Part shown: piece after piece, positions 1 through 50,035 of the stretch
Layout of the letters: each line of letters opens with the position of its first letter
Position numbering within the stretch: the stretch's first letter is position 1
Assembly (NCBI GenBank): GCA_030390025.1
Contig: CM059432.1
Coordinates: 54,128,001-54,192,000 of the forward strand
Direction: 5' to 3'
DNA from: Squalus acanthias
Taxonomy: Eukaryota
Length of the DNA stretch: 64,000 nt
Position numbers and translations under genes: made by a program
Notes under the pieces: model-generated
What the model saw: the letters and a program-made list of their open reading frames with translations, nothing else
Databases searched by the model: none
Told to the model about the DNA's origin: nothing

Positions 1-1385
1 CATTTCTTGACCACGTGGAGTGAATCGAATTGGCTCAAGACTGGCTTCTGTGATGGTGGGGACGTCAAGAGGAGGCCAATATGATCATCCACTCGGCACT
101 TCTGGCTGAAGATGGGTGCAAACGCTTTAACCTTGTCTTTTGCACTCACGTGCTGGGCTCCGCCATCATTGAGGATGGGGATATTCATGGAGCCTCCTCC
201 TCCCGTTAGTTGTTTAATGGTCCACCAGCATTCACGACTGGATGTGGCAGAGCTGCAGAGCTTGATCTGATCCGTTGATTGTGGGATCGCTTAGCTCTGT
301 CCATAGCATGCTGCTTTCGCTGTTTAGCGTTCATGTAGTCCTGTGTTGCAGCCTCCCCAGGTTGGCACCTCATTTTTAGGTACGCCTGGTGCTGCTCCTG
401 GCATGCTCTTCTGCACTCCCCATTGAACCAGCGTTGGTCGCCTAGCTTGGTGGTAATGGTAGAGTGAGGGATATGCCAGGTGATGAGGTTACAGATTGTG
501 GACAGTACAATTCTGCTGCTGCTGATGTCTGACAGTGCCTCATGGATGCCCAGTTTTGCGCTGCTAGATCTGTTCTGAATCTATCCCATTTAGCACAGTG
601 GTAGTGCCACACCACACGATGGAGGGTGTCTTCAGTGTAAAGACGGCTCTTCATCTCCACAAGGACTGTGTGGTGGTCACTGCCTCCAATGCTGTCATGG
701 ACAGATGCATCTGCGACAGGTAGATTGGTGAGCATGAGGTCAGGTAGGTTTTTCTCTCGTGTTGGTTCTCTCACCCCTTGCCGCAGGCCCAGTCTGGCAG
801 CTACGTCCTTCAGGACTCAACCAACTTGGTCAGTCATGGGGCTACCGAGCCACTCTGGTGATGGACATTGAAGTCCCCCCACCCAGAGTACATTCTGTGC
901 CCTTGCTACCCTCAGTGCTTCTTCCAAGTGGTCTTCGACATGGAGGAGTACTGATTCATCAGCTGAGGGAGGGCGGTAGGTGGTAATCAGCAGGAGGTTT
1001 CCATGCTTGATCTGAAGTCATGAGACTTCATGGGGTCCGGAGTCAATGTTGAGAACTCCCAGGGCCACTCCCTCCCGACTGTATACCACTGTGCCGCCAC
1101 CTCTGGTGGGACAGGACCTACCCAGGGATAGTGACGGAGGAGTTTGGGACATTGGCTGAAAGGTATGATTCTGTGAGTATAACTATGTCAGACTGTTGCT
1201 TGACTAGACTGTGTGACCGCACTCCCAATTTTGGCACAAGTCCCCAGGAGGACTTTGCAGGGTCGACTGGGCTGGGTGTGCCGTTGTCATGTCTGAAGCC
1301 GGTTTTATTCTTATTATTGTTTTCTGTAGCAGTTTGTTACAACTGAATGGCTTGCTCGGCCTTTTCAGAGGGCAGTTAAGAGTCA
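1..1385 (-). mobile_element. LINE-B (CR1-superclade non-LTR retrotransposon), 5' part: UTR, APE endonuclease and linker, degenerate; runs off the window
   Basis: Minus ORF 442-774 EPTREKNLPDLMLTN...SDHHTVLV is the APE C-terminal SDH motif; colinear with 47850-49800. Confidence 0.9.
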
Positions 1386-1640
1386 CCACCGCACTCAACT
1401 TCTTCACCTCAGGCTCCATCCAGAGATCTGCAGCAGACATTTGAAGGATCTTGCAGTCGGCTGCCCACAGATGCATGACCGATGTATGACTGATGCCATG
1501 TTTGACAAGTCAGCCAATTATGTCAATTTTGCCACTGATGAAGCCAGTTTGCAGCTCTGGCTGGCTTTCCACAGGTGCAGGGTGTCATCGACTGCACACG
1601 TGTAGCCATGAAAGCACCCCATCATAACCCAGGGCTGTCC
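1382..1640 (+). pseudogene. Harbinger (HARBI1-like) DDE transposase fragment
   Basis: Manual translation VTTALNFFTSGSIQRSAADI*RILQSAAHRCMTDV...AGFPQVQGVIDCTRVAMKAP matches the GFP-x-V-x-G-x-IDCTH motif with the first catalytic Asp. Confidence 0.85.
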
Positions 1641-1649
1641 CCTAAAGAT

Positions 1650-1815
1650 GGGAATGGTAGCATAGTGGTTATGTTACCTGGGCTAGTAAATCAGAGGCCT
1701 GAAACTAATGATCTGGAAATGTGAGGTCAAATCCCACCACCATGGCAGCTGGGGAATTATAAATTCAGTTCATTAAATAAACCTGGAATAAAAAGTTAGC
1801 ATCAGTAATGGTGCT
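1650..1815 (+). mobile_element. tRNA-like 5' head of LINE-B or of a cognate SINE
   Basis: A box TAGCATAGTGG at 1658-1668, B-box-like GGTCAAATC at 1725-1733; homologous to the minus strand of 49915-50021. Confidence 0.8.
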
Positions 1816-3930
1816 GGAAACTAAGTCATCAATGATATCATCAGACCCACACTATTTAATAGGGCTGGAAAACACTCATGACTCTTTCAATTCGGGTCAT
1901 TAAGTGAAAGTTCCTCTCAGTAGTACATTGTGTTTTGGGCCCACACACACCCGCCTGAACACAAAGGTGAAAATTTCGGCCTAAATGTCTGTGATAAGAT
2001 TCATTTGTATTTATAGCGCAAATCCAGCAATTTCTTGATATTCATGGAGAGGTTGGCGATGAGTTCCTGTTTTTGTGAGGTTAACGGCGAAGCAATGCAA
2101 ACCATCCAGCAATTTGTGTCGATTCACAACTCAAGGTGTATCTCTTCCTCATCACAAATTGCTGTTTCTTATGCACTAATAATGACATGCGCCGTGAACT
2201 CGCCATTATTTTTCCTGCAATTTCTTAGCCATTATTTTCGATTTTATCTCAAAGCTGAGAATGTGTACAACATTCTCAGTAATGGAACACTAACCTAAAT
2301 AAAATTAAGAGAAATTACTTTGTCAGTTGTTGCAAATTTACATTCATTTTCCATAAGTCACAGAGATTCGATCTGTGAGAAGTGAGTTCTAGATGAATTT
2401 AGATTGCATCTATCCAGTTGTTGCTGTGTTTTTTTATAGTTTTAGATGTGATGCTTGTATCAGTTTCAGTGTCAGTGACAATTCTGCATTGACACACCAG
2501 GGTGATAAACTAAGCCTCACAACTCTGTTCCTACTCTCACTCGATTACTCTCACTTGCAAAACAGATAGTTATACAGAAAGATTACTTTTTTTACAGAGT
2601 ATTTATTTTGTATGATTAAAGAGAAGCACAAAAATCGGTTTCATGCTTTTCTCCTATAGTGATGTGGAAAACTTGGATGAAACTATCTCTGGTAACAATA
2701 CAAGCAGTTTATTTATTATTGTTTTATAATAATTAATTGCCCAAAACAGCTGACTTTGTCATAGTTCTTAAATTGTTCTTTATGGATATTTGCTGAAAAG
2801 GCATCTGAAATTAAGTTTAAAAAAAAATAGATCATTAGAATTGCAACCCAATCCTCTGAATCGGGATCTGACACAACAAAGTTAAACATCTTCATAAGCT
2901 TAATACGAGTGACATAACAGATTCTTGGATTATCAAGGCCCTAACTGAGGAATAGATACCCTCCTAGCTCAGTTATGTCAATTGATAAATGTTGTTTAAG
3001 TATCTGAGTGGATAACATTAAAATGTCTTTTCACAAGAAAGGATCAAAATCAAACTCCAATTACAAAACAATATTCCTAAGACAAAGTGTATCAAACCTC
3101 TGAGAAACCACAGTGAATGATAAACTGTTGCAAGGTATCAGTCACAATGATCCTCTATCAATTTAGGCTTTCACGTTAGAGCAAGTTGGTTGACCTGTAT
3201 TGTTTTGCATCTCCTGGTCTGGAATTAGAACAATCCTCTTGATGTTCACCATGAACTTGCTGCAGTGCCACTTGAGATTTCCAGAGTCTTCAAAAAGGAT
3301 ATGGCATTCCAGCAAGTTAGAAGCTGGCCTCTTGTGTTGGCACAGTGGGTTGCTTGCCTAAATATACAATTTCCTTAGTTATGCAAAGAATGGGCTGTGA
3401 TAATAAGATGTTCAGTTTTGTTGTCACAATGAATACACAGTAGTCACTCAGGGAAGTGATCTTGGCCTAACTCTACTTTTCACATTCCTCAATGACCGAC
3501 TATTGGAGCCCCATTTAGCAGGCTCAAACTCATTCTTTCCTTGTATCTCAAAACTGTTTACCTCTCTCAGTCTTTCTTTCCTTCTACTACCTGCAGGTTT
3601 TTAAAGCTTCAGCTTGGTGTCACCCAACCACCAGTTTTTGATATATGTTATCTTCTCTCCTGCTTTTTCATCCTATTGGTGTCTGCACTATGAGTCTTAT
3701 GCTTCATTTCGTTTTTTAATAAACAAGTCTGAAATTTTAAATGGTGGATCTTCAAAATCAAATGATCTTTGATATTAGTGCCTCTAATCGGAATGTTGAT
3801 GTTACCCATTTGGTTTGTATTTAGCATCTACAGACCTCCATGTATAAGAAGTATGTCTGTGCACTGAACTGTGCCCAATTCATTTTGATTTGGTTGGTGT
3901 CATGGAAATCAACTCGGATCTAAAGGTATA

Positions 3931-4030
3931 TCTGAAATAAAAACAGAAAATGCTGGAAACGCCCAGCAGGTCAGGCAGCATTTATGGAGAGAAGAACAGA
4001 AAGTTTCAGGTCAATGAACTTCCATCAGAA
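3931..4030 (-). mobile_element. Penelope-like element terminal (pLTR) fragment with degenerate hammerhead core
   Basis: Reverse complement of 13723-13826; minus strand reads CTGATGG...GAAAC. Confidence 0.6.
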
Positions 4031-4626
4031 AGGTATATCTATTTGGGCTAAGAAAGTTCTTCCAACTTATAACTGTCCTAATTAGAACTGAATACAAAAG
4101 AATTATTTAAGACTGGCACTCATTACTTTTGTGACAATATTCACAAGTTCAGCACACCCATCTTTAATCATGTTAATGATTTTTTCTGACCAGATTTTCT
4201 TCTTGCCTCAGTTTATTTTGTGCTGTGGAGTATTGTCCATTGGGAACTCAATTGAGACTATCCCAACATATTTAATTTAGGATTCTTAATGGTTGCCAAA
4301 ATCAGAACAAAGCCATCCCATCTGTTTGGGTTGGATGCTAGCCCAGTCTTCTATCACAATCTACAACCCAACCCTCTTGATAAAAGGAAACAAATTGTCA
4401 TATTTGGCAAAATAAAGGGCTTTTTTCAGACTGATTATTGTGATTCCTATGCTCATAATACAATCAACACTTGCATTTTTAAAGCTATTGGTTGGTATTA
4501 ATTTTTAATTTACTGTGCTGTAGTATATAACAATTATTTACTGCTTAAGATCATAACATTTCTTTGAATATGTTCTTTGAATTGAATGGTGTACACATTA
4601 AAAGCATTTGGGGTGAAATTATTTGT

Positions 4627-5424
4627 GGCCTGGAATTTCCTGGAACTTTTTAGTGTAACTATGGCATAAGAGCAGCGCTGTACCATTTTTTTCTGAGGAA
4701 ATATACATGTAACTGATTAACACTGACTTTACACTGAAACATCGCTACGCACAAATTTCCTGGATCGTTTGCGCTGCTTCCAAGATACTTCTGCCAAAGC
4801 CCTTTGCTGCTCATTTGTAAAGCTCCACTCCAATTCAAAAGACCAGGTCACGCAAGATTCCTGGATTAACACGAATATTACGCTTCCATTGATTTTTACC
4901 CCCAAATTTAGGCGCAACACAGCCCAAAGCCACTTGGTATTGACGGCATAACTAAGATTTCTGGAGTTTGATAGCTACTTCCTTCACTTTTTAAAAAGTA
5001 TTTTCTTCCTGAGACTTGCACTATACTTAACCAAAGTACCGTCAGTGCCAGTGCACCCGAAATCTTTGGCTGTCCGCCCACCCGCCCCCAACACGTTCAG
5101 CAGGAATAAGCAGCTGGAATGGCTTTCCCATTGAGCATACCAATGTTCTACACAATAATGGAAGAGGAAAAGGAGCAGCAAAGGCAAGAGGCTGTGAGAA
5201 TTAGGTGACATGGCAAAAGACATCAGCTCACTCTCTATTACCTGTATTGGTTGCACTGCACTTGCGCTTGTTTCTATGCCAGTTTTTATGTCCGGTGTAG
5301 CCAAATTAACTCTCAAGGAAATTTCAGTTTAGGTTCCCACGCATAAACCAATGTAAATTTTGGCATAATTTCTGCGTAAGTGCGATCCAGTAGTATCGGG
5401 GTTACTGTGTGAGATTTTCATGGC
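4627..5424. mobile_element. Old Harbinger-like non-autonomous element
   Basis: Degenerate termini GGCCTGGAATTTCC ... GAGATTTTCATGGC resemble the TIR class seen elsewhere; CpG-containing interior. Confidence 0.35.
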
Positions 5425-6397
5425 TTTGTTGAAGTTTTTTTGCTATTTAAATTTAGGCATTAATTTAAATGAGCTAATGCATTAACTAAAATAGTAAACA
5501 GAGGAATTTCATAGAAGCATATTAGTATATTAATATCACACAGCATGATTTCACCTCAATAATAATTTATAGAGATTAAAGACTTGAAATGATTTTAGGT
5601 CATTTTGACCTGAATAAATTGATGTAAAGTAAATCAAAAGGCCCAGGAAAATCAAAGTGATGCTCATTTAACTAAGTTTCCAGTCACATCTTGGATTCTT
5701 TGAACCCGAAGTTTTTAAACTGAAAGGTCAGCTATTTAAAATGAATGTTTTAACGGGATGTTGAAGTGGATGCTGTTTTTACCCTTTGTGATGGATTTAC
5801 TTGATGTGATCCAGGTCCTTCCTATTCTTTCAAATCAAATATTCATTTTTAATTAGGCATCATCTTTATCTTAGCTTTAATTCAATTCTGCTTATGTAAG
5901 ATCCATGCTGCAGAAAAATTCAGTCTTACTTCCATCATAACTCTTTCCTGTTGAATGTCTTATATTGGTGCATTCAAAAATGTATATTAATTAATCTTTT
6001 TGACATCGCAACCAGCATGAGAAACAATTATCAAAGTTTTTGTGAATGCTCAGCTGAAATATTATTGCTTTAGTATATACTTATTGATGTAGTGTATGCT
6101 TTCTTATAACTTGGAAAGAAAATACCCATTTAATTCAGGGGTAATATCAGGATAAGTGAAAGTACTGAGTGTACGAAGTACTGAATTTTTTCACAAGGTG
6201 ATTTAGTCAGTCAAGGTTATACACTTTGCTTTCCCTTGTGCAGTACGAGTATGCAATAAAGTGTCAGCTTGACAATCTTCAATGTTTATTTTTGTTTAAT
6301 AAATTCAGTAAGGGACTAATTTTTTCTACACATCAACATTTTTGCCTGTGGTATGCAATATAATGCAAACTTCTTGATTGGTTCAGTAGATTCATTA

Positions 6398-6684
6398 AAA
6401 GAAAGAAAGAAAGAAAGAAAGAAATATATATTATCTATGTAGCACGTTTCACATCCTCAGGACGTCCAATGAATTACTTGTTGAAGTGTATTAACTGTTA
6501 TTTTGTATGCAGATGCAGCAGCTAATTTGCACATAACAAGGTCCCACAAACAGCAATGGGATAAATAACCAGTTAATCTGTTTGTTTTGGTGGTGTTGGT
6601 TGAGGGATAAATGTTGTCCAGGAAAGTGGGAGCAATCCTCTGCCCGTCTTTGAATAGTGCTATTCGATCTTTTACATCCGCCTG
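6398..6684 (-). mobile_element. Deu-domain SINE (SacSINE1/AmnSINE1-like), 3' half with (CTTT)n tail
   Basis: Minus strand has GATGTAAAAGATC...ATTTATCCCTCAACCAAC...TTGCTGTTTGTGGGACCTTG...GTGCAAATT; homologous to 10481-10802 and 57750-58150. Confidence 0.85.
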
Positions 6685-7490
6685 AAACTCCATCCCTCAT
6701 TCTCAAAGGCGCACTGCTGCAATATCGCCCTTCTCTGCCCCGTGTCTCAGCAGAAACCCTCATCTATGCATTTGTTACCTCCAGACTCGACTATTCCAAT
6801 GCTCTCTTGGCCAGCCTCCCACCTTCCATCCTCCAAAAATTTCAGCTCATCCAAAACTCTGCTACCTGTATCCTAATTCGCACCAAGTCCCGTTCACCCA
6901 GCACCAATGTTCCCACTAAGCTGTGCGGCCACGAGGGCGCGCAATGGCCTGGAGGTCCTGCGCAGACCGGCTTTTCAATGCAAGAAACTGCGCATGCACG
7001 AAAATTTGAATGGGCCGTGAAAGGGAACATTTCCCATCACCCCTTTGCTTGCTGACCTATGATGGCTCCCAGTCCAGTAATGCCTTGTATTTAAACTCTC
7101 ATCCTTGTGTTCAAATCCTTCAATGATCTCGCCCCTCCCTATCTCTGTAACCTCATTCAGCCCAATAACCCTCCAAGATCTCTGTACACCTCCAATACTG
7201 GCCTCTTGCGCATTCCCGTTTTCTATCTCCCCACCATTGGTGGCTGTGCTTTCAGCTGCCTAGGCCCTAAGTTCTGGAATTCCCTCCCTAAACCTCTCTG
7301 CCTCTCTACCTCTTTCTCCTCCTTTAAGATGCTCCTTAAAACCTACCTCTTTGACCAAGCCTTTGGTCACCTGTCCTCATATATCTCTTTATGTGGTTTG
7401 GAGTTAATTTTTTTGGTAACGCTCCTGTGAAACCCCTTGGGATATTTTACTACATTATATGTGCTATATAAATGCAAGTTGTTCTTGTTG
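6685..7490 (+). mobile_element. L2 LINE 3' end (RT C-terminus and 3' UTR)
   Basis: AETLIYAFVTSRLDYSNALL, LAPPYL, FSCLGPKFWNSLP and LLKTYLF are L2 ORF2 C-terminal motifs; tail GCTATATAAATGCAAGTTGTT. Confidence 0.9.
6905..7032. mobile_element. 128-bp hAT-type MITE inserted in the L2
   Basis: TIR CAATGTTCCC...GGGAACATTT; 8-bp TSD CCCAGCAC/CCCATCAC (6897-6904, 7033-7040). Confidence 0.85.
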
Positions 7491-7921
7491 TCCTTGATTT
7501 GTGGCATGTGTACAAATTATGTGTATGCAATCCCTCCATCATTATAACGGGACCACAAAATTTAGCACATAAGATTTTCTTTTAATTTATTTTCGATTTC
7601 TTTTTCACAGCTCTCTCTTTCGACTAACCTTCCTCAAGATTTACCCATTGTATCCACACTAACCTCCTCACTCAGAAGAACAGGATTGAACTGCCTGCTG
7701 CTATCTCCATAGAGGCTGCTACTACTGCTGTCTGGCTGACCTATCAAGAGCAGAAGATTAGCAAGATATGGTGAGGATTCCCTCCTCAGTTGTTCTCCTC
7801 TTCCCCAGGTCACCCAGATGACTTTTATCATTCTCTTGGGGAAACCCTAATGCAAGTACCATCCCTAGCTGATATATTTCTTCTTTCAGATAAGCCTCTA
7901 GCTCCAAAAGTTTTGAGTCAT

Positions 7922-16195: not shown

Positions 16196-19100
16196 CAATG
16201 ACATGGGTAGAAAGAGGGATGAGGTCCTGCAACAAGAATTTAGGGAGCAAGGTAGCAGATTAAAAAGCAGGACCTCAAAGGTTGTAATCTCTGGATTACT
16301 CCCGGTGCCACGTATAGGAATAGGAGTATAGGGCAGATGAATGCGTGCCTAAAGAGTTGGTGCAGGAGGGAGGGCTTTAGTTTCCTGGATCACTGGGTCT
16401 GCTTCTGGGGAAGGTGGGACCTGTACAAATCGGACGGGTTGCACCTGAACCAGAACGGGACCAACATCCTTGCGGGGAGGTTTGCTAGTACTGTTGGGGG
16501 GGGGTTTAAACTAACTTGGCAGGGGGATGGGATACGGAGTGGAGCTATAGAAGGGGGTAATGCAGAGCCGAATATAGAGGAAAAAACAAGTCAGCCTGGA
16601 AGGCAGAGCAAATATGTAATGGCACAAGGGAGTATGGCAAGGCTGGATGGCATTTATTTTAATGCAAGGAGTCTTGCGAGTAAGGCAGATGAATTGAAGG
16701 TGTTGATGAGCACATGGGAGTATGATATTGTTGCTATCACAGAGACATGGTTGAGGGAGGGGCAGGACTGGCAGCTCAATATTCCGGGGTATGGAATCTT
16801 CAGGTGAGACAGAGGGGGGTGTAAAAGAGTGGGGGTGTTGCAATATTAATCAAGGAGTCAATTACTGCTGTAAGGAAGGATGATATCTTAGTAGGTTCCT
16901 CTAATGAGGCCATATGGGTAGAACTTAAAAACAAAAAGGGGCAAGCACTTTGCTGATAGTGTACTATAGGCCCCCAAACAGTCAGGGGGAGATAGAGGAA
17001 CACATATGTAGGTAAATCTCAGAGAGGTGTAGAAATAATAGGGTAATAATAGTAGGGGATTTCAACTTCCCCAATATTAACTGGGATAGTCAGAGTGTGA
17101 AAGGCTTAGAGGGTGAGGAATTCTTAAAGTGCATCCAGGAGAGCTTTTTGAGCCAGCATGTAGAAAGTCCTACAAGAGAGGGGGCGGTACTGGACCTAAT
17201 TCTAGGGAATGTAGCCAGGCAAGTAGTAGAAGTGTTAGTAGGAGAGCATTTTGGTGACAGTGACCATAATTCGGTGAGATTTAAGGTAGTCATGGAAAAG
17301 GACAAAGATGGACCGGAAATAAAGGTTCTAAATTGGGGGAAGGCCGATTTTAATATGATAAGGCAGGATCTGGCCAAAGTGGACTGGGATCAACTACTTG
17401 TAGGAAAATCCACATCAGAGCAGTGGGAGTCTTTCAGAAAGGAAATAGAGAGAGTACAATGGCAACATGTTCCCGTAAAGGTCAAGGGTGGGACCAACAA
17501 GCCCAGGGAACCCTGGATGTCAAGGGATATACGAGAATGGATTAGGAAAAAAAGGGAGGCTTTTGGCAGATACAAAGGACCAAAAACAGTGGAAGCCCTA
17601 GAGAAGTATAGAAAGTGCAGGGTGGTACTTAAAAAATAAATTAGGAGAGCAAAGAGGGGGCATGAAATAACACTGGCGGGCAAAATAAAGGAAAATCCCA
17701 AGGTGTTTTATAAGTATATTAAGGGCAAGAGGATAACCAGGGAAAGAGTAGGGCCCATTAGGGACCAAAGTGGCAATCTGTGTGTAGAGCCAGAAGATGT
17801 AGGTGGGGTTTTAAATGAATATTTTGCATCTGTGTTCACGATGGAGAAGGACGATATAGGCATAGAAATCAGTCAGGGGGATTGTGATATACTTGAACAA
17901 ATTAGTATTGAGAGGGAGGAGGTACAACAGTTTTAGCGGGCTTAAAAGTGGATAAATCCCCAGGCCCAGACGAGATGTATCCCAGGCTGCTGTGTGAGGC
18001 AAGGGAGGAGATTGCAGGGGCTCTGACACAAATTTTCAGAACCTCTCTGGCCACAGGGGAGGTGCCAGAGGACTGGAGAACAGCTAACGTAGTACCATTA
18101 TTCAAGAAGAGTAGTAGGGATAAACCAGGGAATTACAGGCCAGTGAGCCTAACATCAGTGGTAGGGAAATTATTGGAAAAAATTCTGAGGGACAGAATTA
18201 GTCTCCACTTGGAGAGGCAACGATTAATCAAGAATAGTCAGCATGGCTTTGTCAGGGGGAGATAATGTCTGACCAATTTGATTGAATTTTTTGAGGGGGT
18301 GACTAGGTGTGTGGATGAGGGTAGTGCAGTTGAAGTGGTCTACATGGACTTCAGTAAGGCTTTTGACAAAGTCCCACATGGGAGACTGGTCAAGAAGGTA
18401 AGAGCCCATGGGATCCAGGGCAACTTGGCACATTGGATCCAAAATTGGCTTAGTGGCAGGAGGCAGAGGGTGATGGTCGAAGGTTGTTTTTGTGACTGGA
18501 AGCCTGTGTCCAGTGGTGTACCGCAGGGATCGGTGCTGGGTCCTTTGCTGTTTGTAGTGTACATTAATGATTTAGATATGAATGTAGGAGGTATGATCAG
18601 TAAGTTCGCAGATGACACAAAAATTGGTGGAGTGGTAAATAGTGAGGAGGGAAGTCTCAGGCTACAGGACGATATAGACAGGGTTGGTCAGATGGGCAGA
18701 ACAGTGGCAAATGGAATTTAATCCTGAAAAGTGTGAGGTGATGCATTTTGGGAGGACTAACAAGGCAAGGGAATACACAATGAATGGTAGGACACTAGGA
18801 AGGACAGAGGATCAGAGGGACCTTGGTGTGCATCTACATAGATCCCTGAAGGCAGCAGGACAGGTAGATAAGGTGTTTAAAAAGGCATATGGGATACTTG
18901 CCTTCATTAGCCGAGGCTTAGAATAAAAGAGCAGGGAGGTTATGATGGAGCTGTACAAAACGCTAGTTAGGCCACAGCTGGAATACTGTGTGCAGTTCTG
19001 GTCACCACACTATAGGAAGGATGTGATTGCATTGGAGAGGGTGCAGAGGAGATTCACCAGGATGTTACCTGGGCTGCAGCGCTTCAGCTATGAAGAGAGA

Positions 19101-19517
19101 CTAGACAGGCTGGGGTTGTTTTCCTTAGAGCAGAGAAGGCTGAGGGGGGACCTGATTGAGGTGTACAAAATTATGAGGGGCATAGATAGAAAGGAACTTT
19201 TCCCCTTAGTAGAGGGGTCAATAACCAGGGGGCATACTTTCAAGGTAAGGGGCAGGAGGTTTAGAGGGGATTTGAGGAAAAACTTTTTCACCCAGAGGGT
19301 GGTTGGAATCTGCAACTCACTGCCTGAAAGGGTGGTAGAGGCAGAAACCCTCACAACATTCAAGAAGCATTTAGATGAGCACTTGAAACGCCATAGCATA
19401 CAAGGCTATGGGCCAAGTGCTGGAAAATGGGATTAGAATAGACAGGGCTTGATGGCCGGCGCGGACACGATGGGCCGAAGGGCCTCTTTCTGTGCTGTAT
19501 AACTCTATGACTCTATG
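16196..19517 (+). mobile_element. CR1 LINE, 5'-truncated: ORF1 SGNH-esterase tail plus nearly complete ORF2 (APE and RT) with stops and frameshifts
   Basis: DGLHLN esterase motif; YFNARS, ETWL, SDH, PQGSVLGP and FADD motifs; (CTCTATGA)n tail; TSD ACTGAC (16190-16195, 19518-19523). Confidence 0.97.
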
Positions 19518-25796: not shown

Positions 25797-27412
25797 GAGG
25801 GTGACCGTACGTTCCCGTTTTCCGGGGACAGTCCCTGGATGAGGGACTGTGTTCCCGGGCAAACAATGTCCCCAGAAGAGTCCCCGGTTTGCAAAACTCA
25901 TCCCCGAAGTGTACCCCTGGGCAGTGAGTTTACCCCACCCACCCCCGAGCTGTCAGTTTGTGGCTCTAAGGCTAAATGAAACAACTTGTACAATGGCCAG
26001 AGTGACTCACAGCGCATGCGCAACTGGGCGGTCTTTCTGCGTATGTGCCACTTGTTGTTTCTGAATTACCGGACGGGTTTGTGCTGCTGGATTGTCGCCG
26101 CCGGAAGTGCCTGGAAGCATGGCAACCGGAGTGGATGAGGGAGAGGCTGCGGGAGAGGGCCCTGTCACCTTCACTGGGTGAAGGGGGCTAATCCTGGACA
26201 CTGTGGGGGTGTGGGGGTGGGTGGCAGGTGTGACCTCAGACACTGTGGCGGGGGGGGGGGTGCAGTGTGACCTCCATCACTTGGGGGGAGGGTTCATGTG
26301 TGACCTCAGTCACTGTGTGCAGGGGGGTCAGGTGTGACCTCAGTCACTTTGGGGGGGCGGGGGTGCAGGTGTGACCTCAGTCACTGGGGGGTGAGCAGTC
26401 AGATGTGACTTCAGTCACTTGGGGGAGGGGTCAGATGTGACCTCAGTCCCTGGGGTGGGGTCAGATGCGACCTCAGTCACTGGGGAGGGATCAGATGTGA
26501 CCTCAGTCACTGGGGAGGGATCAGATGTGACCTCAGTCACTGGGGTGGGGTCAGATGTGACCTCAATCACTGTGGGGGGGGGGGGGGGGCAGTGTGACCT
26601 CAGTCACTTTGGGGGGGGGGGGGTGCAGGTGTGACCTCAGTCACTGGGGGGTGAGCAGTCAGATGTGACCTCAGTCACTGGGGTGGGGTCAGATGTGACC
26701 TCAGTCACTTGGGAGGGGTCAGATGTGACCTCAGTCACTGGGGAGGGGTCAGATGTGACCTCAGTCACTTGGGAGGGGTCAGATGTGACCACAGTCACTT
26801 GGGAGGGGTCAGATGTGACCTCAGTCACTGGGGAGGGGTCAGATGTGACCTCAGTCACTTGGGTGGGTTCAGATGTGACCTCAGTCACTGGGGTGGGGTC
26901 AGATGTGACCTCAGTCACTTGGGAGGGGTCAGATGTGACCACAGTCACTTGGGAGGGGTCAGATGTGACCTCAGTCACTGGGGAGGGGTCAGATGTGACC
27001 TCAGTCACTTGGGAGGGGTCAGATGTGACCTCAGTCACTTGGGAGGGGTCAGATGTGACCTCAGTCACTGGGGAGGGGTCAGATGTGACCTCAGTCACTT
27101 GGGTGGGTTCAGATGTGACCTCAGTCACTGGGGTGGGGTCAGATGTGACCTCAGTAACTGGGGAGGGGCCAGGTGTGACCTCAGTCACTGTGTGGAGGAG
27201 GGTCATCACCTCAGTCACTTGGGAGGAGGGGTCAGGTGTGACTTTAGTCATTGTGGTGGGGGGGTGTAGGTGTGACCTCAGTCACTGGTGGGGGAAGGGT
27301 CAGGTGTGACCTCAGTCACTGTTGGGGGGGGGCAGGTAACCTCAGTCACTAGAGGAGAGGGGTCGGGTGTCTGAATGTGCTTCAATAGTGTGTTTCAACA
27401 TTTATTTTGCTA

Positions 27413-38364: not shown

Positions 38365-41170
38365 TTTTTTTTTATTCGCTTATGGGATCTGGGTGTCGCT
38401 GGCAAGGCCAGCATTTATTGTCCATCCCTAGTTGCCCTTGAGAAGGTGGTGGTGAGCCACCTTCTTGAACCGTTGCAGTCTGTAGACTTCGCAAAATACC
38501 CCAGAAACTCGAATAGAACCCTAAAGGAGGTGATTTTTGGATCTTAACACGAATTTGGAATGGTGGGACTGAAATGAAGGAATTTGAGGTCAAAACCTCA
38601 GTTTTGAAGTACATTTTGACAGGATCAAGGAAGAAAAAAAAGCCCTGAGGAAAATGACTTTGGATGATAAGATACCCTTTAAAAAGGGCCATTGGGTAAA
38701 CCTGCAGTCACAGAAACACAGGCTGCGGGAAGGGGTGTGGTGAGGCAGTGGACAGCTTTTGAGAATTGGGACCAAATCAAGCTGTCTGGGAGATGTTTGC
38801 ACTGCAATCCAACCAAGGAGGAAGAGCCTCATCCAAAACATCACAAACACATTCAAAAATGAATAAACCAAGACCCCTTTTGAAATCCCCAGGTCCAGAC
38901 AGGATACTGGAAGTCTGAAAACAATTCCTAACAATAAAACTTCCAGTACACCGTTTCATAGCCCATCATCCCATCAAAAACCGATTAGCCAAGTATCGAC
39001 AGGAACAGTTTAACAAGCCCACCAAAACCTAAGACAAAAGAAGCGAGATTTGGCGCATAGATAGAGGCCCTGTCTCAATGAAAGACATCGATAGCCATCA
39101 GGACAAGTTAACACTAAGTTAAAATCATCAGACTTAACGAGCCCGCCAAAACCTAAGACAAAAGAAGCGAGATTTGGCGCGAAGATAAACAGGCCTCAAC
39201 TGAAACCTAAATCACTTTAACGCGAAATCGATTAGTAAAACGGTTTTGGCGCGAAGAACACAATAGACCTGAACAGTATAATTGAGGGCCTAATCCCCCA
39301 AGAAAGTTAAGCCACACCCGTTCAACACACACGACACGAGGGCGACACCAGAGCCAAGCAACAAGGAACGAGTCACAAGAAGAACCTTCAGCAGGCAGGC
39401 CTAAAGCCACGGGCAAGAAGACACGAGGAACCCGAGAGACACTGTGGTGGTGTCTGTTCAAGCCGTGCAGTTTGTTACAACACTATACTTAAAGTTAGTT
39501 CAAGGCTGTCCAGAGAGGCAGTTTAAAGTTAGTAACAGTACCGAGGCACGCAAGGACAACACGCCACAGTAAGGGGGGTCATCGACGGACCCGACTGGGA
39601 AAAAGGTTCCCAACGCCTCGCAGCAACCAAGGCCCCACGAACCAACCAACAGAACGCCACCGACCAACCAGGTGCGAACCAGGCCGTCGTGACCACCGAA
39701 AGACCAACACCAGGAAAAACCGAAGACACGCAAGTTTCCACGCTACAAACTATTCCTGACTTACCCCTGGGTAAGATTTTCCCTTAAAAAATCCTCTAAA
39801 CCCTACCTCTAACGAAGAAAATTGGGTACTCACCTGATATAATCCAATACGCACCTTACCGCATCAGCGGACAGACCCAAACTGACCTGGAGTGCAGCTG
39901 AAGTCTTCTACCACGTCTGGGGTACGGCAGGTCCCAACAACCAAAAACCCCAGTGAACCCCGAAATCGCGAAATACCTCAACTGTCAAGAACTGTCAAGG
40001 AGTGCTGAGCATTATCCCTGGTCCTCTGGAATCAAACCTAGCTAGGCAGTGGGATCGGGAGGGATAAGGGGTTTTGTATACTGTAATTCTCCCTCGCCTG
40101 TACCGTGTGTTCCCTAACCTGTGTTTAAGTATTAAGTATGTTTTAAGATTGTTTGTGTTGTATTTACCTTTTCTTGAATAAAAGTCAAAGTTCTTTCATC
40201 AAAACCTGTTGTCTACTGCACCTTTGTTCACGACCCCCAAATAAGTCCAAGGTCTAGAATCAAGGGAGTGGTAGCGATTCGAACCGCTCACTGAAGTCAG
40301 AGGCGAAGCTGACCCCACCACACCACCCCCTACAAGTCCGTGTGGTGAAGGTACTCCCACAGTGCTGTTAGGGAGGGCGTTCTAGGATTTTGACCCAGCG
40401 ATGCTGAAGGATCAGCAATATACTTCTAAGTCAGGATGGTGTGTGACTTGGAGGGGAACTTGGAGGTGATGGTGTTCCCATGCGCCTGCTGCCCTTGTCC
40501 TTCTAGGTGGAAGAGGTCGTGGGTTTGGGAGGTGCTGCCGAAGAAGCCTTGGCGACTTGCTGCTGTGCATCTTGTGGTGGAGGGTGTGAACATTTAAGGT
40601 GGTGGATGGGGTGCCAATCAAGCGAGCTGCTTTGTCCTGGATGGTGTCGAGCTTCTTGAGTGCAGTTGGAGCTGCACTAACCAGGCAAGTGGAGCGTATT
40701 CCATCACACTCCATACTTGTGCCTTGTAGATGGTGGAGAGGCTTTGGGGAGTCAGGATGTGAGACACTCGCCGCAGAATACTTCGCCTCTGACCTGCTCT
40801 TGTTGCCACAGTATTTATGTGGCTGGTCCAGTTAAGTTTCTGGTTAATGGTGACCCCCAGGATGTTGATAGTGGGGGATTCGGCGATGCTAATGCCATTG
40901 AATGTCAAGGGGAGGTGGTTAGACTCTCGCTTGTTGGAGATAGTCATTGCCTGGCACTTCTGTGGCACGAATGTTACCTGCCACTTTTCATCCCAAGCCT
41001 GAACGTCGTCCAGGTCTTGTTGCATGCGGGCATGGACTGATTCATTATCTGAGGAGTTGTGAATGGCGCTGAACACTGTGCAGTCATCAGTGAACATCCC
41101 CACTTTTGACCTTATGTTGGAGGGAAGATCATTGATGAAGCAGCTGAAGATGGTTGGGCCTAGTACACTG
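38365..41170 (-). mobile_element. LINE-B 3' portion (RT C-terminus and tail) split by a solo LTR
   Basis: ORF 40618-41103 FTDDCTVF...LGVTINQKLNWTSHI...IYKAQV; 3' tail at 38365-38480 resumes at 40335. Confidence 0.93.
38481..40334 (+). mobile_element. Long solo LTR (1854 bp), Gypsy or ERV type
   Basis: Ends TGTAG...CTACA; TSD AGTC (38477-38480, 40335-40338); AATAAA at 40177; no credible ORF. Confidence 0.85.
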
Positions 41171-41570
41171 CGTTCCTAGTGGTAGAAGCTCACTGGAAGT
41201 GTGGGACTGCAATGGATCAGTCATCCTCTATAACTGCAGGACATGTCATCTCACTAACGTCAACATATGTTGAGTGTGCCTTCACATGGCCAAGTTGCTA
41301 GCCATACAGTGGTAGCCACAATAAATACTATAGAGGATCTTGGGAACGCAGGAATGTATATGACCAGAAAAGATCATTGTGATCCATTTGGCCAACCCAG
41401 TGCCCAGCAAATATCATGTGGGAAAGTTTTTGCTAAGTTGCGCTGGTTTATTCGGCTCAATTCACCTGAAATCGGCGTAACCCATGCAAAAGATCATGGA
41501 ATTATAAGCGCCAATTGCATTCAGCGCAAATTGAGTTACCGTGATCTTTTGCGCGAGTTTAAAAAATATC

Positions 41571-42381: not shown

Positions 42382-42607
42382 TTTATCTGGGGTGGGACCT
42401 TTCATTTTAGCATTGCTCTTAGGCTGCAGTAGAGGATGGTTCTAAGTTTGGTAAACTGATTGGCAAAATCATTTCTGCACAATATAGTTAGAAGCTATTG
42501 CCAATTTACTCAGCCTTTTCAACATTGAGAGAAAGCACCAAAAGATTCACTGACAGTTACTCCTCAATAAATCTACTTTAATTTGGATGAGTGAAAGTGG
42601 GGAGTAG

Positions 42608-43050
42608 CGGGGTGATTTTCCCCGGATACTTTAGGCGCTAAAGAGCCTCCAAGGTGGCCAAGTTGAGGTCTTAAGCTGAAACGCTGGGTTAGCCCGCGTT
42701 TGTGCAAGACGACATCTTGGTAAAGGAATTGAAGCTTGCGCTAGGAACGGCCACCCTGAGGATGGTTAAGGGGCTGATTGCCACATAAATTGCCTGCTAA
42801 TGCTCATTAACGAGGATGTCCGGCATTTTGGTGGATAGCGCTTGGCCTAACACACTAACATTGCTTCTAATCAACGCTTGAGTGCTAAACCTGCAGGTGT
42901 CTATTTAAGTGCCGCTAGGCAAGTTTAAATCATGGTAATGTTCAATTAGCCCCAAAATAGTGTGCAAAAACCAGACTTTCAAACCGACATGTCTTATTAG
43001 TACATCACCCATTTAGCGCCTCTTTTCACCCTTTCACCAAAATAACCCCG
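42608..43050. mobile_element. Harbinger-like MITE
   Basis: TIR CGGGGTGATTTT / AAAATAACCCCG; TSD TAG/TAA; GGCGCTA motifs. Confidence 0.8.
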
Positions 43051-43922
43051 TAAGTCTTGACTCTGAGAAGCAAAAGCTTGACTAGGATCTTAAGATCACA
43101 AATGAGGAGGTAAATTGGCTAATAGGCTACACAACTGCTGGTCCTTACCATATTTCAGACTGCGAAAAATAGTAGTGTAATGTATTGAAGAAAGTGCCAG
43201 ACACCCAAATCTACATGCATAATCGTATGGGCCTTGAATCGACTGCGTTAACATATTTTTTAATAATATTTTGTGGGGACTTCATTCCTTTAATTATTGT
43301 GACCTTCTCTAGAGACACTGGGGCGTGCTGACATGACAGTTCTGCATTACGGAGCTCTGGGAGATTCAAATGGCCTATGTCACCTGGCAAATGAAGGGCT
43401 GAAATGAAGAAAAGGTCTTTGTACAATTGGGGAAAAGCCAAATTACTGTCTTTGATGCTGCAATGAAATAAGACCATATATACTTTGATTGATGGGCTAT
43501 AGCATGCCTGCTGTTGCCTTTTCCGTGGTCTGCTAGAACATTGTCTGCTTTATTCCTGTGTGCTTCGTGTTTCTGTTTTTGAGTGATGTAGTTGGCCATC
43601 TGCCCAGCTGCAAAACAAGGCACAAAACTTACCTCTGATGCTTGATTCGCTGCCTCCTGTTCTTACTCATGTCGAGTAATTTTTACTCTGTCTTAAAGAC
43701 CATTTATTACTAATTGTTGCAGAAATGCTGCTACACTTTTCAACAGGTTAAATTAATCTAACTAATTCAGCTATTACTTAATGTCAGTCATTTAATTTTT
43801 ATTCATTCACGGGATGTGGGCGTCACTGGCAAGGCCAGCATTTATTGCCCATCCCTAATTGCCCTTGAGAAGGTGGTGGTGAGCCACCTTCTTGAACCGC
43901 TGCAGTCCGTGTGGTGAAGGTA

Positions 43923-46482
43923 TATTACATAGGATTATATAGGACATGGCTGCAGGAATTCCTCAGGGCAGTGTCCTAGGCCCAACCATCTTCAGCCTGC
44001 TTCATCAATGACCTTCCCTCCATCATAAGGTCAGAAGTGGGGATGTTCGTTGATGACTGCACAGTGTTCAGTGCCATTCGCAACTCCTCAGATAATTAAG
44101 CAGTCCATACCCACATGCAGCAAGACCTGGATGACATTCAGGCTTGGGCTGATAAGTGGCAGGTAACATTCGTGCCACACAAGTGCCAGGCAATGAGTAT
44201 CTCCAATAAGCGAGAGTCTAACCACCGCCCCTTGACATTCAATGGCATTACCATTGCCGAATTCCCCACCATCAATATCCTGGGGGTCACCATTGACCAG
44301 AAACTTAACTGGACCAGCCACATAAATACTGTGGCAACAAGAGCAGGTCAGAGGCTGAGTATTTTGCGGCGAGTGTCTCACCTCCTGACTCCCCAAAGCC
44401 TTTCCACCATCTACAAGACTCAAGTCAGGAGTGTGATGGAATACTCTCCACTTGCCTGGATTAGTGCAGCTCCAACAACACTCAAGAAGCTCAAAACCAT
44501 CCAAGACAAAGCAGCCCACTTGATTGGCACCCCATCCACCACCTTAAACATTCACTCCCTCCACCACCGGCGTACCGTGGCTGCAGTGTGTACCATCTAC
44601 AAGATGCACTGCAGCAACTCACCGAGGCTTCTTCGGTAGCACCTCCCAAACCCGTGACCTCTACCACCTAGAAGGACAAGGGCAGCAGGCGCATGGGAAC
44701 AATACCACCTGCAGGTTCCCCTCCAAGTCACACATCATCCTGAGTTGCAAGTATATCGCCGATCCTTCATCGTCGCTGGGTCAAAATCCTGGAACTCCCT
44801 CCCTAACAGCACTGTGGGAGTACCTTCACCACACGAAATGCAGCGGTTCAGGAAGGCGGCTCACCACCACCTTCTCAAGGGCAACTAGGGATGGGCAATA
44901 AATGCTGGCCTTGCCAGCAACGCCCACATCCCATGAACGAATTAAAAAAAAACACAGCACAGAAACAGGCCATTCGGCCCAACCAGTCCATGCCAGCGTT
45001 TATGCTCCACTCGAGCCTCCTCTTGTCTTTCCTCATCTAACTCTATCAGCATAACCCTCTATTCCCTTCTCCCTCATATGCTTATCTAGCCTCCCCTTAC
45101 ATGCATTTATACTATTCGCTTCAACCACTCCCTGTGGAAGCGAGTTCCACATTCTCACCACCCTCTGGGTAAAGAAGCTTCTTCTGAATTCCCTATTTGA
45201 TTTCTTGGTGACTATCTTATATTGATGGCCTCTAGCTTTGCTTTTCCCCACAAGTGGAAACACTCTCTCTGTATCCACTCTATCAAAACCTTTCATAATT
45301 TTAAAGACCTCTATTAGGTCACTCTTTAGCCTTCTCTTTCCAACAGAAAAGAGACCCAGCCTGTTGATCCTTTCCTGATAGATATACCATTGCATTTCTG
45401 GTATCACCCTTTGTAAATCTTTTTTGTACCCTCTCCAGTGCCGCTATATTCTTTTTATAACATGGCGACCAGAATTGTACACAATACTCCAAGTGTGGTC
45501 TAACCAAGGTTCGATACAAGTTTAGCATAACTTCACTACTTTTAAATTCTATCCCTCTAGAAATAAACCCCAGTGCTTGCTTTGCTTTTTTATGGCCTTA
45601 TTAACCTGCATTACTACTTCTAGTGATTTGTTTATTGCTACTTTGAGATCCTTTGCTCTTCTACCCCATTTAGATTCTTATTTTCCAAGTAATATGTGAC
45701 TTCCTTATTTTTCTTACCAAAATGTAATATCTCACATTTATCTGTGTTGAAATTCATTTGCCAATTATATGTCCATTCTGCAAGTTTATTAATGTCTTCT
45801 TGTAATTTGTTGCAGGTCTTACTCAGTATTGACCATCTCCCCAATTTTGTGTCATCCGCAAATTTAGAAATAGTGCTTTTGATTCCATAGTCTAAATCGT
45901 TAATATAAATTGTGAACAACACTGGTCCCAGATCTGATCCTTGTGGGACCCCACTTTCCACCTTCTGCCACTCTCAATAGCTACCCTTTACCCCTAATCT
46001 CTGCTTTCTATCTTGACGCCAGCCAGCTATCCATTCTGCTACTTGTCTTCTGACTTTGCATTCTCTGACCTTATTCATTAGTCTATTATGTTGCACCTTA
46101 TCGAAGGCTTTTTGGAAATCTAGATAAATTACATCTACTACATTACCCTTGTCTACTCTCTCTGTTACCTCATCAAAGAATACAATGAGTTTGGTCAAGC
46201 AAGACTTTCCCTTTTGAAATCCATGCTGACTATTCTTTACTATGTTTATGGTTTCTAGATGTTCTTCTATTTTTTCCTCTGGTAGGGATTCCATTATTTT
46301 TCCTACCACCGATGTTAAGCTGACTGGTCTATAGTTCCCTGGACATGTTCTATCTCCCTTCTTAAACATATATATGTTAGCTAACTGCCAGTCCTCTGGC
46401 ACTACACCTTTTTCTAACAAATTATTAAATATGTGTAATAGTGAATCTGCAATCTCTTCCCTAGATTCTTTTAAAATGCGCG
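43923..46482 (-). mobile_element. CR1 LINE (RT to tail) inserted in LINE-B and itself split in its tail
   Basis: ORFs 45033-46492; tail TACATAGGATTATATAGGA at 43927 continues as CACAGCACAGAAAC at 44953; TSD GGTA. Confidence 0.9.
43947..44952 (+). mobile_element. LINE-B 5'-truncated copy inserted in the CR1 tail
   Basis: ORF 44115-44639 RT C-terminus; ends AATAAATGCTGGCC...CATGAACGAATTAAAAAAAAA. Confidence 0.95.
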
Positions 46483-48378
46483 GTACTCCCACAATGCTGT
46501 TATGTAGAGAGTTCTAGGATTTTGACCCAGCGACAATGAAGGAACGGCAATATATTTCCAAGTCAGGATGATGTGTGACTTGGAGAGGAACGTGGAGGTA
46601 GTGGTGATCCCATATGCCTGCGGCCCTTGTCCTTCTAGATGGTAAAGGTCGCGGGTTTGGGAAATGCTGTCGCAGAAGCTTTGGCAAGTTGCTGCAGTGC
46701 ATCTTGTAGATGGTACACACTGCAGCCATGGCGTGCCAATGGTGAAGGGAGTGAATGTTTAAGGTGGTGGATGGGGGGCCGATCAAATGGGCTGCTTTTT
46801 CCTGGATGGTATCGAGCTTCTTGGAGCTGCACTCATCCAGGCAAGTGAAGAGTATTCCATCACACTCCTGACTTGTGCCAAGTAGATGGTGGAAAGGCTT
46901 TGGGGAGTCAGAATACCCAGCTTCTGACCTGCTCTTGTAGCCACAGTGTTTTTGTGGCTAGCCCAGTTACGTTTATGGTCAATAGTGACCCTCAAGATGT
47001 TGATGGTGGGGGATTCGGTGATGGTAATGCCATTGAATGTCAAGGGGCAGTGGTTAGACGCTTGCTTGTTGGAGATAGTCATTGCCTGGCACTTGTGTGG
47101 CACAAATGTTACCTGCCACTTATCAGCCCAAGCCTGAACGTTATCCAGGTCTTGCTGAGGAGTTGCGAATGGAACTGAACACTGTGTAATCATCAGCAAA
47201 CATCCCTACTTCTGACCTTATGATGGACAGAAGGTCATTGATGAAGCAGCTGAAGATGATTTGGCCTAGGACACTGCACTGAGGAACTCCTGCAGCAATG
47301 TCCTGGGCTGAGATGATTGGCCTCCAACAACCATAACTATCTTCCTTTGTGCTAGGTATGACTCCAGCCAGTGGAGAGTTTTCTCCCTGATTCCCATTGA
47401 CTTCAATTTTACTATGGCTCCTTGAGTCAAATGCTGCCTTAATGTCAAGGACAGTCATTCTCGACTTACCTCTGGAATTCAGCTCTTTTGTCCATGTTTG
47501 GACCAAGGCTTTAGTGAGGTCTGGAGCCGAGTGGTCCTGGTGAAACCCAAACTGAGCATCAGTGAGCAGGTTATTGGTGAGTAAGTGTCACTTGGTAGCA
47601 CTGTCAATGACCCCTTCCATCACTTTGCTGATGATTGAGAGTAAACTGATGCGGCAGTAATTGGCCGGATTGGAGTTGTCCTGCTTTTTGTGGACTGGGC
47701 AATTTTCCACTTTGTTAGGCAGATGCCAGTGTTGTAGCTGTACTAGAATAGTTTAGCTAGATGCACGGCTAGTTCTGGTGCACACGTCTTCAGCACTGCA
47801 GCCGGGATGTTGTCAGGGCCCATAGCCTTTGCTGTATCCAGTGTGCTCAGCCGTTTCTTGATATCATGTGGAGTGAATCGAATTGGCTGAAGACTGGATT
47901 CTGTGATAGTGGGGACCTCAGGAGTAGGCCGAGATGGATCATCAACTCTTGTCTTTTGCACTCACCTACCGGGGTCCGCCATCTTTGAGGATAGGGATGT
48001 TCATGGAGCCTCCTCCTCCCGTTAGTTATTTAATTGTCCACCACCATTCATGACTGGATGTGGCAGGACTGCAGAGCTTTGATTTGATCCGTTAGCTGTG
48101 GGATCGCTCAGCTCTGTCTATAGTATGCTACTTCCACTGTTTAGCATACATGTGTGTATCTTCACCTGGTTGGCACCTCATTTTTAGGTATGCCTGATGC
48201 TGCTCCTGGAAGGCTCTTCGACACTCCTCATCGAACCAGGCTTGGTCAACTGGTTTAATGGTAATGGTAGAGTGAGAGATATGACAGGCCATGAGGTTAC
48301 AGACTGTGGTGGAATATAATTCTTCTGCTGCTGATGGCCCACAACGCATCATGGATGCCCAGTTTTGAGCTGCTAGAT

Positions 48379-48931
48379 TTTTAAAAATTCATTCCTGGGA
48401 TGTGGCGTCTCTGGCAAGGCCAGCATTTATTGTATATCCCTAATTGGAATAGAGGGTTAAGCTGATAGAGTTAGATGAGGAAAGATGGTAGGAGGCTCGA
48501 GTGGAGCATAAACGCCAGCATGGACTGGTTGGGCCGAATGGCCTGTTTCTGTGCTGTATATTTTTTTTATTCGTTCATGAGATGTGGGTGTCGCTGGCAA
48601 GGCCAGCATTTATTGCCCATCCCTAGTTGCCCTTGAGAAGGTGGCGGTGAGCCGCCTTCCTGAACCGCTGCAGTCGCGTGGTGAAGGTACTCCTATAGTG
48701 CTGTTAAGAAGGGAGCTCCAGGATTTTGACCCAGTGACGATGAAGGAACAGTAATATATTTCCAAGTCAGGATGTTGTGTGACTTGGAGGGGAAATTGGA
48801 AGTGATGGTGTTCCCATGTGCCTGCTGCCCTTGTTCTTCTAGGTGGTAGCGGTCGCAGGTTTGGGAGGTGCTGCCAAAGAAGCCTAGGAGTGTTGCTGCA
48901 GTGCATCTTGTAGATGGTACACACTGCAGCC
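48379..48931 (-). mobile_element. Chimeric insert: LINE-B 3' end, then antisense CR1 tail, then a second LINE-B tail
   Basis: Interrupts GCTAGAT/CTGTTCTGAATC of the host; 48445-48931 is an inverted homolog of 44580-45065. Confidence 0.85.
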
Positions 48932-50035
48932 ATCTGTTCTGAATCTATCCCATTTAACACGGTGGTAGTGCCGCACAACATGATGGAGGGTGTCTTCAGT
49001 GTGAAGACTGGACCTTGTCTCCACAAGGACTGTGCTGTGGTCACTCCTACCAATGCATCTGCGACAGGTTGATTGGTGAGGGCGAGTCAAGTAGTTTTTT
49101 CCCTCATGTTGGTTCTCTCAACACCTGCCCCAAGCCCAGTCTGGCAGTTATGTCCTTCAGTACTCGTCCAGCTTGGTACGTAGTGGTGCTACCGATCCAC
49201 TCTTGGTGATGGACACTGAAGTCCCCCATCCAGAGTAAATTCTGTTCTCTTGCTACCCTCAGTGCTTCTTCCAAGTGGTGTTCAGCACGGAGGAGTACTG
49301 ATTCATCAGCTGAGGGAAGGCGATAGGTGGTAATCAGCAGGAGGTGTCCTTTCCCATGTTTGACCTGATGCCTTCAGACTTCATTGGTCCAGAGTCAATG
49401 TTGAGGACTCCCAGGGCCACTCCATCCCAACTGTATACCACTGTCCCGCCACCTCTGGTGGGTCTGTCCTGCGATGAGACAGGACATACCCAGGGATGGT
49501 GATGGAGGAGTCTGGAACGTTGGCTGAAAGGTATGATTCTGTGAATATGACTATGTCAGGCTGTTGCTTGACTAGTCTGTGGGACAGCGCTCCAAATTTT
49601 GGCACAAGTCCTCAGATGTTAGTGAGGAGGACTTTGCAGGGTCGACTGGGCTGGGTGTGCCTTTGTCGTGTCCAAATCCGATGCCTAGGTCGATGCCGGG
49701 TGGTCCGTCTGCTTTTTTTATTATTATACTTTGTCATTGCAGTTTGATACAAATGAGTGTCTTGCTAGGTGACTTCAGAGGGCAGTTAAGAGTCAACAAC
49801 ATTGCTTTTGGTCTGGAGTCACATATACAGGTCAGGATGGCAGATCTGCTTCCCAAAAGGACATTAGTGAACCAGATGGGTTTTTATGACAAACCGGTAG
49901 TTACATAGTCACCTTTATTCCAGATTTATTTAATTAACTGAATTGAAGTTCGTCAGCTGCCATGGTGGCATTTTAACTCATCCAGATCATTTGTCCAGGC
50001 CTCTGGATTACTAGTCCAGTATGAGGCCTGACTCA

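Follow-up and report, generated by a model that had tools for sequence, protein, structure and literature searches.

Which polymerase transcribes a retrotransposon that encodes its own reverse transcriptase (RT) and begins with a tRNA-derived head? The question is raised by a 64-kb stretch of the Squalus acanthias genome (contig CM059432.1, positions 54,128,001 to 54,192,000; the whole stretch is called the window below). It holds several pieces of LINE-B, an abundant 3.3-kb long interspersed nuclear element (LINE) with a single open reading frame (ORF) for an endonuclease-RT and a tRNA-derived head with A and B boxes. A sequence-only reading of the window had noticed that the LINE-B sense strand is almost devoid of TTTT, and had taken this as independent support for RNA polymerase III (Pol III) transcription. 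As stated, the argument fails its own tests, and scarce TTTT by itself is no evidence for Pol III transcription. What stands is a broader form of it, in that a wider set of Pol III terminators is depleted in LINE-B but in none of the controls. The lack of the full set in the one family with a Pol III head gives real but indirect support, and we give about even weight to the proposal that LINE-B is transcribed by Pol III from its head.

A coding LINE with a tRNA-derived head

When the LINE-B 5′ part was searched against the 3.7-Gb genome, 11,601 candidates came up, 40 of which were scored. The retrieved copies are 3.3-kb units with sharp ends, and their upstream flanks have no sequence in common. 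Copies are dispersed, with 5′ truncations and a fixed, tailed 3′ end; a target-site duplication was found at one of the seven examined. When 20 copies were selected by their RT protein alone, five extended to the head, the others being truncated or interrupted. The element starts with GGGAA(C/T)GGTAGC, followed by an A box at nt 9–19 and the B box GTTCAAATC. These boxes stand in tRNA register and show zero mismatches to the consensus. The Rfam tRNA match of the head is weak (14.5 bits, E 4.1, below cut-off), and ARAGORN reported no tRNA in the window.

A single frame of 973 codons, opening after ∼330 nt, is present in the column majority of 96 pieces; natural copies have open frames of 815–874 codons. 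RT is recognized by Pfam RVT_1 (E 5e-37). Upstream in the same frame lies an apurinic/apyrimidinic endonuclease (APE): LINE-B homologues carry PF03372/PF14529, and the translation contains what we take to be the APE catalytic motifs. LINE-B has no ORF1. The 3′ untranslated region (UTR) of ∼50 nt has an AATAAA (nt 3260), ∼45 nt before the A tail that follows. Among the changes that subfamilies have in common, 44 are synonymous and 28 non-synonymous; the corresponding numbers for private ones are 457 and 1480 (p 4e-11). Because shared changes are thus skewed towards synonymous ones, the protein was under selection during amplification. With RT and APE in one frame, dispersed copies and purifying selection, LINE-B is an autonomous APE-type non-LTR retrotransposon.

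The start of this frame is unusual. Its first in-frame Met is codon 286, and the closest upstream in-frame AUG meets stops in most copies. The APE-RT frame is not opened by an in-frame AUG (element nt 274–470; L042, L070 and L077): in most copies the sequence there is Met-Ala-stop, and another stop follows after six codons. LINE-B has eight upstream AUGs, six of them in the ORF frame, and AATAAA or ATTAAA occurs at nt 117, 132 and 357.

Genome-wide, 250 exact pattern matches join the LINE-B 5′ UTR to its 3′ end with varied junctions (L244–L255), forming copies like short interspersed elements (SINEs). The variety of these junctions suggests repeated independent internal deletions together with one common form. 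With its tRNA-derived A/B-box head LINE-B resembles a SINE2, but its length (3.3 kb, 973 codons) sets it apart from these short non-coding elements, except for the internally deleted copies. Another type of derivative, in which the LINE-B 5′ part continues in frame into 3′ sequence of a CR1-like element (L146, L148 and L161; C53, C3445 and C29; open frames up to 971 codons), was rejected as a mobile unit; these chimeras are one duplicated event, because they are embedded in shared short-period satellite flanks.

Pol III terminators on the sense strand

In the assays described in Orioli 2011 (PMC3141230), human Pol III is also stopped by T2VT3, T3VT2, TVT3, T3VT and T2VT2, while an isolated T3 does not stop it. 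We therefore counted the canonical and non-canonical classes of that study together. LINE-B has one such site in 3,300 nt, a T2CT2, which gave 15% termination in the same assay; there is no T4, TVT3, T3VT, T2VT3 or T3VT2. Expected numbers were 11.7 in base shuffles (0 of 1000 as low, p < 0.001), 6.6 in dinucleotide shuffles (4 of 1000, p 0.004) and 5.6 in synonymous shuffles of the ORF (9 of 1000, p 0.009); with trinucleotides preserved, the depletion was weak (1 versus 4.2, p 0.044). A single natural copy, L070, likewise has 2 sites versus 7.0 expected (p 0.006). In lacking internal sense terminators LINE-B resembles a Pol III type-2 unit.

The depletion is strand-specific: the antisense strand has 38 terminator-type sites. 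Motifs of equal shape built from A or from C show no depletion. All seven LINE-B TTT are of the isolated, inactive type, which is not depleted either (7 versus 5.8 expected; 5 versus 6.9 in the ORF). At synonymous T/C sites T was used at 0.29, 0.23 and 2/37 where the resulting run was 1, 2 and 3+ respectively (odds ratio 0.16, p 0.002). Control odds ratios for T-run avoidance were 0.42–1.20, the lowest being that of a CR1-like ORF (p 0.055). Among splice sites, poly(A) signals and ATTTA, none was significantly depleted in LINE-B, and splice-tract avoidance was rejected as a cause, since pyrimidine runs of 8+ number 8 versus 4.8 expected.

The same metric gave observed/expected ratios of 0.82–1.10 in CR1-, L2-, Tx1- and RTE-like ORFs of the same genome, these being labels that we assigned from protein motifs. 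Eleven RTE-like and five further CR1-like ORFs all had a non-significant terminator load (RTE 10 versus 10.7), and the lowest ratio in single RTE copies was about 0.67, as compared with 0.18 for LINE-B. A side observation on these families is that a young Tx1-like one (L144, L147, L149, L150, L155 and more) has intact 1306-codon frames, some pairs lying ∼7.2 kb apart. Of 80 metagenomic relatives of LINE-B, 76 had a usable ORF; being mostly AT-rich and 23–48% identical, they serve as distant controls. Their ratios were at least 0.77 and their densities at least 3.3 sites per kb, versus 0.18 and 0.3 for LINE-B. In L164, the closest of those that include a 5′ region, the ORF contains 20 T4, and Rfam gave no tRNA match. 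A loose A/B scan matched 3 of 23 relatives (L164, L169 and L200), as against 6 of 115 shuffled stretches (about 5%).

TTTT alone proved much less informative. T-runs in the LINE-B majority number 473 of length 1, 78 of length 2, seven of length 3 and none of 4+. Internal T4 sites are each found in only one or two copies and become more frequent as copies diverge (0.057, 0.11 and 0.28 per kb, from 5 sites in 87 kb, 8 in 72 kb and 21 in 74 kb), from which we conclude that the LINE-B master had no internal sense T4. Against base composition this zero is significant for the whole element (3.9 expected, p 0.022). Of the controls proposed in the sequence-only reading, however, neither dinucleotide (1.5 expected, p 0.21) nor synonymous-codon shuffles (1.8 expected, p 0.11) bore it out, and the T4-only statistic, which was also non-significant with trinucleotides preserved, was discarded as evidence. 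A pooled count over 55 copies (28 T4 versus 91 in dinucleotide shuffles; 55 of 59 loci, four with pieces < 1500 nt being left out) does not count as independent evidence, since all these copies go back to a single master. The preference for TTC over TTT, which the sequence-only reading had suggested as a check, is not specific: TTT:TTC is 3:15, as compared with 68:125 for other T/C-ending two-fold codons (p 0.09), and 11:46 in the Tx1-like family.

The window pieces on which the TTTT argument was built are listed here with the control and the smaller fragments; coordinates are those within the window, strand is given per piece, and element nt denotes the position in the LINE-B element.

48933..50020, minus strand: LINE-B 5′ part, element nt 28–1117 (head without the first ∼27 nt, 5′ UTR, APE endonuclease region)
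48560..48932, minus strand: nested LINE-B 3′ piece, element nt 2886–3263, with A tail; interrupts the long copy
48378..48446, minus strand: second short LINE-B tail piece; the "inserted tail" run at 48383 is its T5 at the T/A border
46482..48378, minus strand: LINE-B remainder, element nt 1116–3132 (linker, RT, C-terminus), decayed; sense T4 = 0
3..1389, minus strand: LINE-B piece, element nt 254–1687, extending past the window start; sense T4 = 0
1649..1805, plus strand: head-only fragment of the LINE-B family; A box TAGCATAGTGG at 1658–1668, B box with one change at 1723–1735
40335..41171, minus strand: LINE-B RT and C-terminal fragment, element nt 2286–3147; sense T4 = 0
43942..44951, plus strand: 5′-truncated LINE-B with A tail, element nt 2260–3262; T4 at 44362
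43801..43922, minus strand: LINE-B 3′ tail fragment
38366..38483, minus strand: LINE-B 3′ tail fragment
16196..19517, plus strand: CR1-like LINE, the control; 17 sense T4+ and 26 terminator-type sites

The T4+ counts reported earlier for these pieces were reproduced: none in 1–1385 (minus) and 40335–41170 (minus), one in 43947–44952 (plus, at 44362), one in 46483–50021 (minus, at 49855) besides the 48383 run inside the inserted tail piece, and 17 in the CR1 at 16196–19517, with all four quoted positions among them. The proposed C-to-T change at 44362 was also confirmed: this site reads TATTTTGC, while TATTCTG is found in the family majority and in the copies at 40775 and 46910 (ATTCTG to ATTTTG). 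The 49855 run, the single T4 of the 48933..50020 piece, reads GTCCTTTTGG and is not in the family majority, which has GTCCTTTAGG (CCTTTAG to CCTTTTG). The head of that copy has lost its A box, and its B box, at about 49979–49967, is decayed. Together, the six window LINE-B pieces have 2 T4+ in 6,553 nt versus 10.2 expected by base composition, whereas the nine CR1-like pieces have 44 in 11,659 nt versus 30.2. The difference is exaggerated by the choice of a CR1 that is T4-rich: its 17 T4+ compare with 6.6 expected by composition, and a young copy of the same family has 17 T4 versus 10.7 in synonymous shuffles.

Two further observations concern the window. At 44951–45065 and 48446–48560, and also at L085, LINE-B tails adjoin a reverse-complemented CR1-like 3′ end at nearly the same point, which reflects either target preference or local duplication. 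At 26215–27370 a 30-nt G-rich unit is repeated in tandem ∼23 times, with several frames open.

Proposed Pol III transcription and its competitors

Selection on the source copies likely removed T-rich terminators from the whole 3.3-kb strand. In the mechanism that we propose from these sequence patterns, TFIIIC would bind the A and B boxes and recruit Pol III, which would run through LINE-B. Only terminator-free source copies would give RNA that reaches the 3′ recognition tail, and terminator-free lineages would win for this reason. A T-run in the tail or the flank would stop Pol III, and AATAAA may direct polyadenylation, as it does in T+ SINEs. Because the ORF lacks an opening in-frame AUG, translation of the uncapped RNA would have to begin in an unconventional way; the reporter experiments described in PMC8223928 indicate that Pol III RNA from a type-2 promoter can be translated once TTTT is removed. 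The LINE-B protein would then reverse-transcribe RNAs with the shared 3′ tail, including those of the internally deleted head-plus-tail SINEs. In this full form LINE-B could be a natural protein-coding Pol III gene, namely a vertebrate autonomous LINE with a tRNA promoter, 3.3 kb recoded without canonical or non-canonical terminators, AUG-less translation of an uncapped RNA and SINEs arising by internal deletion, a package to which we give slightly less than even weight.

Several results weigh against Pol III transcription. The terminator metric was chosen after low T3 had been seen, among four that were tried (T4, T3+, 4-in-5 and the Orioli set), and its efficiencies come from human assays. 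The depletion rests on one family and hence on one evolutionary sample. When the strong classes alone were counted with trinucleotides fixed, it was not significant (0 versus 1.6, p 0.13). G motifs were depleted in one of three controls (dinucleotide shuffles, p 0.017), C and G runs are mildly avoided at LINE-B synonymous sites (odds ratio 0.49 each, p about 0.01), and T3+ avoidance in subfamily-shared changes, a comparison of little power, was not significant (1/22 versus 71/703, p 0.71). One metagenomic relative has a perfect B-box match and an A-like box directly upstream of its ORF (L200:371-428), yet it is T4-rich, with 13.6 terminator sites per kb; this match is possibly due to chance.

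The strongest objection to the TTTT argument comes from an RTE-like family of the same genome. The sequence-only reading had named equal depletion in relatives without a tRNA head as a refutation, and this family, which has no detectable head, is equally empty, with 0 T4 versus 3.8 in synonymous shuffles of the ORF (p 0.008) and a single T4 across the 26.7 kb of ORF that 11 copies provide (L266 = G000:C17:32977000-32982500, L268-L276). At its synonymous sites T is found in 8 of 39 cases for a run of 3, so that T3 use is normal, and in 0 of 16 for a run of 4+. Hence a LINE may become free of T4 through something besides a tRNA head. The family is abundant, is not represented in the window and is not a CR1-group relative.

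A templated terminator at the 3′ end is not supported either. In 46 LINE-B copies the tail T-run consists of one T in 27, of 2–3 T in ten and of 4+ T in nine. A "terminal T8" as the templated terminator found no support: the commonest T-run is a single T, and GAAT(T)AAAAAA is the loose-end consensus in four other sequencing runs. T+ SINEs are described as often having rudimentary terminators that lengthen later (PMC8466645). Growth of the tail T-run with age was likewise unsupported for LINE-B, as the correlation had the opposite sign (rho −0.30, p 0.04) with copy ends cut by BLAST to a T5 copy.

The best-surviving alternative, which we regard as a serious possibility though distinctly short of even, holds that Pol III has no part in the T- and TT-poor strand, which would reflect a general avoidance of U-runs by some LINE RNAs (through Pol II pausing or termination at T-tracts, RT slippage or RNA sensing) combined with a Phe-poor protein, and that the head is a captured SINE part carried on Pol II or read-through transcripts. 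The T4-free headless RTE-like family and the mild avoidance of C and G runs agree with it, and TT is under-represented throughout LINE-B (z −3.1). Phe makes up 2.2% of the LINE-B protein, as compared with 4.1 ± 1.0% in 143 relatives; several close protein relatives, amphioxus included (P0009, P0012, P0015 and P0024), are Phe-poor too (1.5–2.6%) and may for this reason share the T-poor strand. A Pol II route could draw on the termination of purified yeast Pol II at T-tracts reported in PMC7615648, and autonomous LINEs are treated as Pol II transcripts in the account of Kojima 2018 (PMC5786205). However, the depletion of terminators in LINE-B persists with protein, codon usage, dinucleotides and trinucleotides fixed, and isolated T3 is spared. 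Moreover, the RTE-like family retains strong non-canonical sites across its copies (T2CT3 at two places, TGT3 at one). The early poly(A) signals and the eight upstream AUGs would also be unfavourable in a capped Pol II mRNA.

It is improbable that chance and a statistic chosen post hoc account for the pattern, that is, that a T-poor 3-kb element simply has few T-runs and one family among many looks extreme. The expected counts are small (1.5–6.7), four statistics were tried and a single family stands out. On the other hand, the motif classes had been defined in independent biochemical work, no relative or own-genome control comes near the LINE-B ratio, and the family singled out is the one with a Pol III head. 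Least probable of all is that LINE-B and the RTE-like family are both Pol III-accessible, the former by its own head and the latter by upstream SINE or tRNA promoters, with T4 avoidance as their common mark: the sharp RTE-like threshold at four T does follow the canonical Pol III rule, but the RTE-like 5′ region has no A/B box or Rfam match, the two longest copies have T4/T5 within the first 150 nt, and non-canonical sites are at expectation.

LINE-B among known elements

A shark-annotated protein is 90% identical to part of the LINE-B ORF, and no full-length library protein exceeds 41% identity; several of the nearest are 935–990 aa long, on contigs of 3.3–4.1 kb. One named protein, amphioxus Hypp5830, was found among ten looked up. 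Contigs from four other organisms (four studies) cover all 30 bins of LINE-B, none of the sequencing runs listed as containing it being of RNA; a word-index protein search gave 6 matches only, and viral contigs held no relatives of the element. We saw no second family of the LINE-B clade in the genome: the top matches of a distant relative were LINE-B-like by place and frame length, ten new loci being unaligned. In an RT tree with an unresolved backbone and no named clade references, LINE-B falls outside a clade (98/93) containing the CR1s of this genome. By this placement and by its lack of ORF1 it is not a member of the vertebrate CR1 clade.

In its general plan LINE-B resembles lepidopteran CR1/Zenon as described in PMC6740152, which has APE and RT in one frame, no ORF1, a short 3′ UTR, an A tail and internally deleted derivatives. 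The Zenon derivative Persaeus is described there as having no tRNA homology or Pol III promoter, unlike LINE-B. T+ SINEs share the 5′ tRNA-like head with A/B boxes, the terminator-free body, the AATAAA ∼45 nt before the A tail and a variable T-run at the border; LINE-B is ten times longer and has its own APE-RT under purifying selection, and most of its tails have one T. Bov-tA and AfroSINE, as presented in Kojima 2018 (PMC5786205), also combine a tRNA head with the 5′ UTR and 3′ end of a LINE, and RTE-1_DAn, treated in the same work, is an earlier case of a LINE with a tRNA-like stretch. In that account the SINEs acquire their head once the internal deletion has occurred, and their parent LINE is regarded as Pol II-transcribed. 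In LINE-B, by contrast, the coding LINE itself has the head, and the SINE-like copies with their varied junctions share it.

Our literature search found no account of a Pol III-transcribed autonomous LINE or of the LINE-B family, with Repbase, Dfam and subscription journals, which may hold the family, lying outside its scope. The prevailing view is that the products of Pol III are all short and non-coding. Autonomous LINEs are taken as products of Pol II or of co-transcription. A self-sufficient 3.3-kb Pol III LINE, if true, would break both rules. TTTT counts are not diagnostic, as the headless RTE-like family passes them, while the full terminator set separates the families; with thousands of copies carrying private T4 sites, the Pol III proposal can be tested directly in RNA data. 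If it is true, LINE-B would also represent a way of forming SINEs in which the head is present from the start and the ORF is lost by deletion.

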